From a virus (Duplodnaviria; Heunggongvirae; Uroviricota; Caudoviricetes), in the IMG/VR virus record IMGVR_UViG_2526164629_000022: a DNA stretch of 6,850 bases, one strand, 5' to 3'. The position numbers and the translations under genes were made by a program. Each line of letters begins with the position of its first letter. Within the stretch, counting starts at the first letter, position 1. The notes beneath the pieces were generated by a model, which saw only the letters and a program-made list of their open reading frames with translations, was not told the DNA's origin and ran no database searches. Positions 4,353-5,766 of the stretch are shown in pieces.

Positions 4353-4401
4353 CTTTCATTAATCCCTGAATTGTTGGTTAATACGCTTGAGGGTAAATGC
4401 G

Positions 4402-4428
4402 AATAATAAAAAAGGAGCCTGTAGCTCC
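4402..4428 (-). terminator. Rho-independent terminator (minus strand) between the 71-93 aa ORF and the TraR-like gene
   Basis: Minus strand reads GGAGC-tacag-GCTCC followed by TTTTTTATTATT: a 5-bp stem plus a U-rich tract, starting 22 nt after the upstream stop codon. Confidence 0.55.
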
Positions 4429-4450
4429 CTGATGATTTTGCTTTTCATGT

Positions 4451-4732
4451 TCACCGTTCCTTAAAAACGCCGTTTAACATGCCGATTGCCAGGCTTAAAT
4501 GAGTCGGTGTGAATCCCATCAGCGTTACCGTTTCGCGGTGCTTCTTCAGTACGCTACGGCAAATGTCATCGACGTTTTTATCCGGAAACTGCTGTCTGGC
4601 TTTTTTGATTTCAGAATTAGCCTGACGGGCAATGCTGCGAAGGGCGTTTTCCTGCTGAGGTGTCACTGAACAAGCCCCATGTCGGCAAGCATAAGCACAC
4701 AGAATATGAAGCCCGCTGCCAGAAAAATGCAT
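4451..4732 (-). CDS. Hypothetical small protein in the position of lambda orf61; start ambiguous (ATG 4732 gives 93 aa, GTG 4666 gives 71 aa)
   Basis: The C-terminal 71 aa (VTPQQENALRSIARQANSEIKKARQQFPDKNVDDICRSVLKKHRETVTLMGFTPTHLSLAIGMLNGVFKER) read as protein-like. The N-terminal 22 aa from the ATG (MHFSGSGLHILCAYACRHGACS) overlap an alternative small hydrophobic ORF in another frame. Confidence 0.6.
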   Translation of the reverse strand: MHFSGSGLHILCAYACRHGACSVTPQQENALRSIARQANSEIKKARQQFPDKNVDDICRSVLKKHRETVTLMGFTPTHLSLAIGMLNGVFKER

Positions 4733-4746
4733 TCAGTGGTTGTCAT
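4663..4746 (-). CDS. Possible 27-aa hydrophobic peptide (MTTTECIFLAAGFIFCVLMLADMGLVQ)
   Basis: Its ATG overlaps the orf63-like stop as ATGA, and its TGA overlaps the GTG at 4666 as GTGA. The composition resembles a single-pass membrane peptide. It conflicts with the N-terminal extension of the 93-aa ORF. Confidence 0.3.
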   Translation of the reverse strand: MTTTECIFLAAGFIFCVLMLADMGLVQ

Positions 4747-4934
4747 ACCTGGTCTCTTTCATCTGCTTCTGCTTTCGCCACCATCATTTCCAGCTTTTGT
4801 GAAAGGGATGTGGCTAACGTATGAAATTCTTCGTCTGTTTCTACTGGTATTGGCACAAACCTGACTCCAATTTGAGCAAGGCTATGTGCCATCTCAATAC
4901 TCGTTCTTAACTCAACAGGAGATGCTTTGTGCAT
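4743..4934 (-). CDS. Lambda orf63-like small protein (63 aa)
   Basis: [63 protein letters not shown], with GGGAGG 4 nt upstream of the ATG. Its size, position and 28-nt overlap with the next gene match the lambda orf63/orf60a arrangement as I recall it. Confidence 0.7.
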   Translation of the reverse strand: MHKASPVELRTSIEMAHSLAQIGVRFVPIPVETDEEFHTLATSLSQKLEMMVAKAEADERDQV

Positions 4935-5089
4935 ACCGCCTCCCGTTTATTATTTATCTTCTCAGCCAGCCGCTGTGCTTTCAGTGGATTTCTGATAACA
5001 GAAAGGCCGGGAAATACCCAGCCTCGCTTTGTAACGGAGTAGACGAAAGTGATCGCGCCTACCCGGATATTATCGTGAGGATGCGTCAT
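4907..5089 (-). CDS. Lambda orf60a-like small protein (60 aa)
   Basis: The ATG at 5087-5089 overlaps the exo stop as ATGA, and the product is [60 protein letters not shown]. The track start at 5095 adds two residues (MA) and is less likely. Confidence 0.65.
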
Positions 5090-5766
5090 CGCCATTGCTC
5101 CCCAAATACAAAACCAATTTCAGCCAGTGCCTCGTCCATTTTTTCGATGAACTCCGGCACCATCTCGTCAAAACTCGCCATGTACTTTTCATTCCGCTCA
5201 ATCACGACATAATGCAGTCCTTCACGCTTCATACGCGGGTCATAGTTGGCAAAGTACCAGGCATCTTTTCGTGTCACCCACATGCTGTACTGCACCTGGG
5301 CCATGTAAGCCGATTTTATGGCCTCGAAACCACCGAGCCGGAATTTCATGAAATCCCGGGAGGTAAACGGGCATTTCAGTTCAAGGCCGTTGCCGTCACT
5401 GCATAAACCATCCGGAGAGCAGGCGGTGCGCATACTTTCGTCGCGATAGATGATCGGGGATTCAGTAACATTCACGCCGGAAGTAAACTCAAACAGGGCT
5501 CTGGCGTCGTTTTCGTACTGTTTTCCCCAGGCCAGCGCTTTAGCGTTAACTTCCGGAGCCACACCGGTGCAAACCTCAGCAAGCAGGGTGTGGAAGTAGG
5601 ACATTTTCATGTCAGGCCACTTTTTTCCGGAGCGGGGTTTTGCTATTACATTATGAACTTCTGACGCTGTGATGACACCGAGCCGTAATTTGTGCCACGC
5701 ATCATCCCCCTGTTCGACAGCTCTCACGTCGATCCCGGTACGCTGCAGGATAATGTCCGGTGTCAT
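5086..5766 (-). CDS. exo: Lambda exonuclease (Red-alpha), 226 aa
   Basis: [76 protein letters not shown]...GFVFGEQWR is near-identical to lambda Exo as recalled. The start overlaps the bet stop as ATGA. Confidence 0.97.

Follow-up and report, generated by a model that had tools for sequence, protein, structure and literature searches.

The locus described here raises the question of whether a very short open reading frame (ORF) lying between two phage genes is a gene in its own right or an out-of-frame coincidence. The ORF, of 27 codons, lies on the minus strand at 4663-4746 of a 6,850-nucleotide (nt) stretch of Caudoviricetes DNA (IMG/VR record IMGVR_UViG_2526164629_000022), which is referred to in its whole length as the window. 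All of the genes of interest were found on the minus strand, in the early-left (pL) operon of a lambdoid prophage. The window region was about 97% identical to phage lambda, the lambda coordinate being the window coordinate plus 26262, and the stretch at 4440-4950 showed 100% identity to a prophage of Escherichia coli 13E0767. Our analysis indicated that this micro-ORF is probably a genuine small gene, which would be translated by coupling, would encode a membrane peptide under purifying selection and would also serve as a relay to the 71-amino-acid (aa) gene that follows it.

The micro-ORF (MTTTECIFLAAGFIFCVLMLADMGLVQ), which was taken from the ORF list and is predicted to form a single hydrophobic helix, begins with the ATG at 4746-4744 and ends with the TGA at 4665-4663. 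Its upstream neighbor is orf63 (4743-4934; DUF1382, phrog_292), whose TGA stop at 4745-4743 is merged with the micro-ORF ATG in an ATGA overlap (4743-4746). At the other end, the micro-ORF stop is merged in a GTGA overlap (4663-4666) with the GTG (4666-4664) of the 71-aa gene (4451-4666), which corresponds to the core of Orf61 in the literature (PHROG 303) and encodes a three-helix protein. These minus-strand overlaps and the open frames of 27 and 71 codons were just as a sequence-only reading of the window had described them. The start codon of the second overlap, a GTG in the window, was an ATG in 297 of 329 relatives, lambda included, where the overlap reads ATGA. Stop/start overlaps at both ends were accompanied by weak independent start signals. 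In particular, the duplex with the anti-Shine-Dalgarno (SD) sequence was -3.9 kcal/mol (range -3 to -5) at a wrong spacing of 0 for the micro-ORF start in the orf63 context and a weak -4.7 kcal/mol for the GTG of the 71-aa gene, compared with -10.3 kcal/mol for orf63. In the orf63 context, the micro-ORF would need reinitiation after orf63.

We compared 329 loci that carry the 71-aa gene together with upstream sequence, collected from IMG/VR, metagenomes, genomes and annotated records. A micro-ORF running intact from the ATG through 26 sense codons to the overlapping stop was present in 316 of them, and 280 of these 316 encoded the identical 27-aa peptide, while the flanking DNA varied. Three of the 329 loci carried Q27stop, which creates TAATGA and thus makes the micro-ORF one codon shorter with the overlap to the next start kept. 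Six were of the L005 type, without the micro-ORF, which was also absent next to the distant homologue P0078 (L232). A 1-nt deletion within the micro-ORF was found on a contig with a coverage of 1.3x (L248), and the micro-ORF stop/start was mutated in L255. Two seemingly divergent homologues (P0069 and P0075; 51-52% identity) were in fact the same sequence in assemblies riddled with indels, and they were left out.

The substitution test covered the 316 intact loci, which represented 63 haplotypes, with an expected synonymous fraction of 26% in the micro-ORF frame. As evident from the counts of synonymous (S) and nonsynonymous (N) changes, the micro-ORF frame showed a synonymous excess (S=12, N=13, omega 0.37, p=0.013), in contrast to the 93-aa frame, in which the 71-aa gene is extended back to an ATG at 4732 (S=5, N=15, omega 1.1, p=0.66). 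The third frame gave S=7, N=19, an omega of 0.94 and p=0.52, and its omega across both data sets was about 0.7-0.9. The first data set alone yielded an omega of 0.28 (p=0.005) for the micro-ORF frame, and its non-singleton variants were distributed as S=11 and N=4 (p=1.6e-4); the 71-aa gene, used as a positive control in this data set, gave an omega of 0.39 (p=0.001). Additionally, synonymous alleles were common, occurring in up to 242 loci, whereas nonsynonymous alleles were found in 11 loci or fewer (Mann-Whitney p=0.007). The rare nonsynonymous variants, among them T3A, F8L, G12V, V25I/A and I14V, were mostly conservative. Judged from these substitution counts, the micro-ORF frame is under purifying selection, in contrast to the 93-aa frame, and the comparison of synonymous and nonsynonymous change in both frames, which had been proposed with the sequence-only reading as a check, therefore came out in favor of the micro-ORF.

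The encoded peptide consists of the polar residues MTTTE, followed by CIFLAAGFIFCVLMLADMGLV (residues 6-26) and a final Q. The grand average of hydropathicity (GRAVY) of the whole peptide was 1.62, and residues 6-26, which form the best 21-residue window, had an average Kyte-Doolittle value of 2.42, with D22 falling within this hydrophobic stretch. The stretch is predicted to be long enough for one transmembrane helix. The peptide contains two acidic residues and no lysine or arginine.

The sequences around the micro-ORF start revealed a mosaic boundary. In E. coli B-type and other prophages, the micro-ORF ATG is precisely where homology to the window sets in. In this methyltransferase context, the ATG overlaps the stop codon of a Dam-like methyltransferase gene, again as ATGA, and follows a GGGAGG with a duplex energy of -10.3 kcal/mol. 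The motif ACGGAGGCNGC-ATGA precedes the micro-ORF in an E. coli locus (L004, about 1990-2004). Where relatives have no micro-ORF (L232, 405-422; L234-L236, 1487-1504), it stands immediately ahead of the 71-aa-family gene, and in the deletion locus L089 (1420-1438) it stands ahead of the fused frame. Unrelated upstream genes share this ACGGAGGCNGC-ATGA end and consequently a C-terminus of (T/R)EAA; these encode the Dam-like methyltransferase, MT-A70 methyltransferases, a DGQHR/DndB-like protein and a 139-aa protein. When the downstream module moves, its initiation region seems to move with it, overwriting the last codons of the upstream gene. The simplest history that we infer from these junctions is that a segment of about 80 nt, with ATGACA on both sides, entered directly behind the start of an ancestral 71-aa gene. 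The micro-ORF would thereby have taken over the ancestral SD and ATG, and the 71-aa gene would have become dependent on the stop/start overlap. We also considered that the micro-ORF arose by tandem duplication of the beginning of the 71-aa gene and then diverged; this origin was not supported, with only the 6-nt ATGACA shared and a score below that of shuffled controls.

Several observations weigh against reading the micro-ORF as a gene. The anatomy by itself is not beyond chance, because the 26 internal codons remained open in 32% of composition-shuffled versions of the 78-nt interior and because 4-nt overlaps are common in this operon; it is the comparative evidence that lifts the micro-ORF above chance. 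The selection test itself drew on about 25 mutational events and reached a p of about 0.01; the events are few because the family is young and narrow, consisting of E. coli lambdoid prophages that are 95-100% identical. A weaker echo of the signal appeared in the antisense frame that shares the wobble positions (S=9, N=11, p=0.02), as expected from that sharing. The micro-ORF was never seen without the 71-aa gene, which does occur without the micro-ORF, and the micro-ORF could be dispensable or purely accessory, since E. coli prophages of the L005 type and all distant relatives manage without it. In L089, a 14-nt deletion destroys the micro-ORF and joins its ATG to the long frame. The peptide gave no significant family match in Pfam, NCBIfam or PHROGs, with nothing at all from Pfam; the best sub-threshold matches were phrog_21538, a 'membrane protein' (E=0.68), and TIGR02507 (E=0.034, below its cutoff). 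The positive-inside rule yields no topology because the peptide has no lysine or arginine. Finally, a review covering the lambda ribosome-profiling results reports only a 7-aa and a 31-aa new peptide in this region (PMC8614690).

Some of these points would suit an untranslated spacer, in which the 80 nt are intergenic or leader sequence, the 71-aa gene initiates alone, and the open frame reflects chance and recent common descent. The frequency of open frames among the shuffled sequences and the regional DNA identity of 95-100% are compatible with such a spacer, as is the absence of the micro-ORF from RefSeq/PGAP and curated phage annotation. A spacer, however, would not account for variation that is frame-specific and biased toward synonymous change, for stop/start overlaps that are exact at either end whichever of two unrelated genes lies upstream, for the strong SD ahead of the ATG in the methyltransferase context, or for Q27stop landing on the overlap again in three loci. 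We therefore regard this explanation as quite improbable. Coding on the opposite strand (plus-strand ORF 4679-4864) was also judged unlikely, given the weaker signal, the out-of-register overlap with orf63 and the lack of a convincing promoter. Searches for an antisense RNA gene or a convincing antisense promoter returned neither; one weak plus-strand match was located at 4378-4407, about 250 nt outside the ORF, and such matches were fewer than expected by chance.

A second explanation accepts translation of the micro-ORF and denies a function to its product: the act of translation would carry ribosomes from orf63, or from the captured SD, to the 71-aa gene, and the peptide would be a quickly degraded by-product. 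The one-sided association with the 71-aa gene agrees with this, and so does the apparent insertion, by which the 71-aa gene would have lost contact with the SD and ATG it originally had. The GTG start and weak SD of this gene in the window also agree with a relay. The tolerated L089 deletion, which joins the ATG straight to the downstream frame, points in the same direction. For a pure relay, however, an open frame suffices, and neither a synonymous excess nor a scarcity of amino acid changes is predicted; nor would the peptide be expected to be identical in 280 of 316 copies while the flanking DNA varies. We consider a relay without a functional peptide unlikely and favor a peptide-encoding gene that also acts as a relay.

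If the micro-ORF is indeed a gene of this kind, ribosomes ending orf63 at the ATGA overlap would restart on it, and in the alternative gene context they would load at its own GGAGG. The product would be a 27-residue peptide with the polar head MTTTE and about 21 hydrophobic residues forming one membrane-spanning helix. Termination on the G/ATGA overlap would then allow a restart on the 71-aa gene, whose own start signals are weak. The peptide would most probably reside in the inner membrane and bind a membrane protein of the host or of the phage soon after induction or infection.

A third explanation holds that the downstream protein starts at the ATG at 4732, giving 93 aa in the 71-codon frame, and that the micro-ORF is an out-of-frame coincidence. 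To understand where the 71-aa protein starts, we examined its distant homologues, of which an exhaustive HMMER search found 19, with identities of 32-65%. Eighteen of them are 69-78 aa long and one is 89 aa, and they align from their first residues in the pattern M-x(3-6)-NALR...GxLNG; the N-terminal extension was missing in all 19. Their genes directly follow an MT-A70 methyltransferase or YqaJ exonuclease gene, usually with an ATGA-type overlap and with no ORF between. Likewise, in the L005 type of E. coli prophage, the gene lies behind a different gene, has its own GAGG and starts at the 71-aa position. The Prokaryotic Genome Annotation Pipeline (PGAP) calls the 71-aa form (coding sequence WP_000188870.1). 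The AlphaFold2 model of the 71-aa protein alone had a mean predicted local distance difference test (pLDDT) score of 87.7, with helices at residues 3-26, 32-49 and 54-64.

The 22-codon N-terminal extension of the 93-aa annotation (MHFSGSGLHILCAYACRHGACS; 4667-4732) was judged non-coding in this frame. An in-frame TGA at 4735-4733 directly precedes the ATG at 4732, no properly spaced SD was found before this ATG, and omega was about 1.1 over the 22 extra codons. Predicted N-termini were inconsistent among records (93, 95, 97, 99, 100 and 102 aa), and residues 1-23 of Orf61 are placed differently by the published AlphaFold and RoseTTAFold models (PMC8614690). In favor of the long form, many records (Phi24B, 933W and others) annotate 93 aa or more, PHROG 303 was built on these, Orf61 of Phi24B/933W has been treated as a 93-aa protein (PMC8614690), and L089 has an ATGA-coupled 93-aa frame. 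Because of the homologue lengths, the PGAP call, the stand-alone fold and the missing SD at 4732, we discount the 93-aa start, which the sequence-only reading had kept as its alternative; it is very unlikely to be real, and these comparisons place the start at 4666. If so, the protein modeled as 93-aa Orf61 should be 71 aa, i.e., 22 residues shorter at the N-terminus.

Relatives in which the micro-ORF is broken and the 93-aa frame is intact, which that reading had named as evidence to look for against the micro-ORF, do exist; they amount essentially to the single case of L089, possibly with a second (H132). The L089 fusion product (MTISSGGLHILC..., 93 aa) is ATGA-coupled, and among the natural copies found, L089 alone seems to make deliberate use of the long frame. 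In L089 (Escherichia sp. E1V33; region 371-1716), a DGQHR-domain (DndB-like) gene of 355 aa lies directly upstream of the module. In H132, from E. coli EC13, the match is confined to the 3' half of the micro-ORF, and this may be a second case like L089.

The identical peptide also occurs in lambda (30925-31008, complement), where its ORF is unannotated and lies wholly within the annotated orf61 (30839-31024; 840-1025 in locus L003), in a different frame. The micro-ORF also lies wholly within the 93-aa annotation of Phi24B/933W (vb_24B_7c of Phi24B). It thus shares its locus with orf61/vb_24B_7c but, being read in the other frame, specifies an unrelated hydrophobic peptide. In lambda, GGA replaces the TGA at 4735-4733, which extends the long frame back to an ATG within orf63, and the A-run corresponding to window positions 4601-4606 has seven A residues instead of the six in the window and most relatives, which shifts the 71-aa gene out of frame. 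From this sequence comparison, the annotated orf61 of lambda is a chimera of the long-frame extension and a frameshifted 71-aa stub. Lambda Orf61 has been noted to 'appear truncated' (PMC8614690).

The published delta-orf61 mutants of lambda and Phi24B have the whole annotated orf61 replaced by an 87-nt scar (PMC6213356), and the deletion is reported to alter the lysis-lysogeny decision and prophage induction, even in lambda with its frameshifted 71-aa core. Judging by the coordinates, the micro-ORF is lost along with orf61 in these mutants, and the lambda deletion additionally takes away the 3'-terminal 20 nt of orf63; the phenotypes published for Orf61 are therefore not specific to one gene and, if the micro-ORF is a gene, would be confounded. 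This matters in that the exo-xis region is under gene-by-gene study because it shifts the lysis-lysogeny balance of Shiga-toxin (Stx) phages. A stronger version of our reading, in which the peptide is an active early effector on an inner-membrane host protein and owns part of the 'orf61' phenotype, and in which the gene was born from an insertion that captured a ribosome-binding site, is unlikely in our estimate. If true, it would document a new gene born by an insertion capturing the ribosome-binding site of another gene.

The micro-ORF was also compared with known systems of similar size or arrangement. The trpE/trpD and trpB/trpA pairs of E. coli are translationally coupled overlapping genes. 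Such ATGA-coupled cistrons, including bet/exo and exo/orf60a of this operon, share with the micro-ORF the common 4-nt overlaps and a weak SD at the dependent starts; the micro-ORF, for which coupling is inferred, is unusual among them as a very short middle link between two genes. The small hydrophobic inner-membrane proteins of E. coli include KdpF (29 aa), MgtS (31 aa) and AcrZ (49 aa). These are similar in size, with one predicted helix and a position within an operon, and KdpF likewise has no basic residues, although the micro-ORF is phage-encoded and no family-level sequence similarity was detected. By this analogy, the micro-ORF product looks like that of a coupled cistron resembling the small one-helix membrane proteins of E. 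coli.

A likeness to toxins, to Kil or to small regulators had also been suggested for the peptide; it derives from hydrophobicity alone, and neither a family match nor any hallmark of a type I toxin locus was found to back it. Type I toxins (TisB, Ibs, Ldr, ShoB and DinQ) are short hydrophobic peptides of 19-35 aa. The micro-ORF has a short hydrophobic peptide in common with them but is an internal pL cistron rather than a stand-alone locus, encodes no basic residues and has no antisense RNA gene that we could find. With the only promoter-like site within chance expectation and no Rfam match at the locus, we rejected a type I toxin-antitoxin locus. Lambda Kil, a 47-aa FtsZ inhibitor encoded in the pL operon, is not a membrane peptide. 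It is likewise a small early pL product, but it shows no similarity to the micro-ORF peptide, occupies another operon position and is not predicted to be a membrane peptide.

A match to the 84-nt micro-ORF at 90-100% identity was found in 3140 of the 5426 complete E. coli genomes (about 58%), and its copies in E. coli number roughly 4200. If it is a gene, lambda, which is the reference temperate phage, and this share of the complete E. coli genomes hold an unannotated conserved gene for a membrane peptide. A tblastn search of 50,697 phage records found no relatives of the peptide outside the lambda/Stx clade. The exact peptide was found in protein collections as a 'hypothetical protein' (UniRef A0A0A2SGE8_ECOLX) on 981 contigs. 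An annotation of the micro-ORF was not found in lambda NC_001416, phage 434, Turner, PhiR11_1 or the sampled RefSeq genomes. Neither did the peptide sequence occur in the literature searched, nor was the micro-ORF described in the examined literature that names orf61, orf63 and orf60a together. Common gene callers such as Prodigal have a minimum near 90 nt, and the micro-ORF is a clear example of the very short cistrons in overlapping-gene relays that such callers miss.

The remaining genes of the operon, all on the minus strand, follow the pL order. A partial gam lies upstream of bet (6548-5763), which is followed by exo (5766-5086) and orf60a (start at 5095 or 5089, end at 4907). Downstream of the 71-aa gene are a 31-codon ORF (4359-4454) and a TraR/DksA-type gene (4352-4131), and then further genes, xis and int. 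Overlaps of 4 nt recur throughout the operon, at bet/exo (5763-5766), exo/orf60a (5086-5089), the two ends of the micro-ORF and the junction of the 71-aa gene with the 31-codon ORF (4451-4454); the orf60a/orf63 overlap is the exception, with 28 nt rather than 4 nt. The stretch from bet to the 31-codon ORF looks built for handing ribosomes over.

The 31-codon ORF would continue this relay, its start codon and the 71-aa stop being merged as GTGA in the window and as ATGA in lambda. Phage 434 and other records include it as an annotated feature. Lambda ribosome profiling is reported to have revealed a gene for a 31-aa peptide, orf2313, in the conserved exo-xis region (PMC8614690), and, judged from matching length and region only, the 31-codon ORF may be orf2313. 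If so, it is a neighboring micro-ORF of the same relay that encodes a different peptide and has already been reported as translated. The 31-codon ORF reads through an intrinsic-terminator-like hairpin at 4412-4430 (AGGGAGC-TAC-AGGCTCCTT followed by TTTTATTATT), and its translation could hinder the formation of this hairpin.

Some RefSeq/GenBank records give the 71-aa protein the name 'cell division protein ZapA'. The Pfam match was sub-threshold (E=0.014; 16 bits against a cutoff of 23.8 bits), no significant PDB match was found for the predicted fold, and the name looks unfounded. The scan of genome contigs yielded mostly lambda-DNA contamination in unrelated genomes and added no diversity. 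In particular, the loci L090-L103 matched lambda completely, as fragments or as contigs with a length of about 48.5 kb, and came from assemblies labeled as Shewanella, Pseudomonas, Bradyrhizobium, Paenibacillus, Kitasatospora and others; they almost certainly represent contamination with lambda control DNA and not host range.

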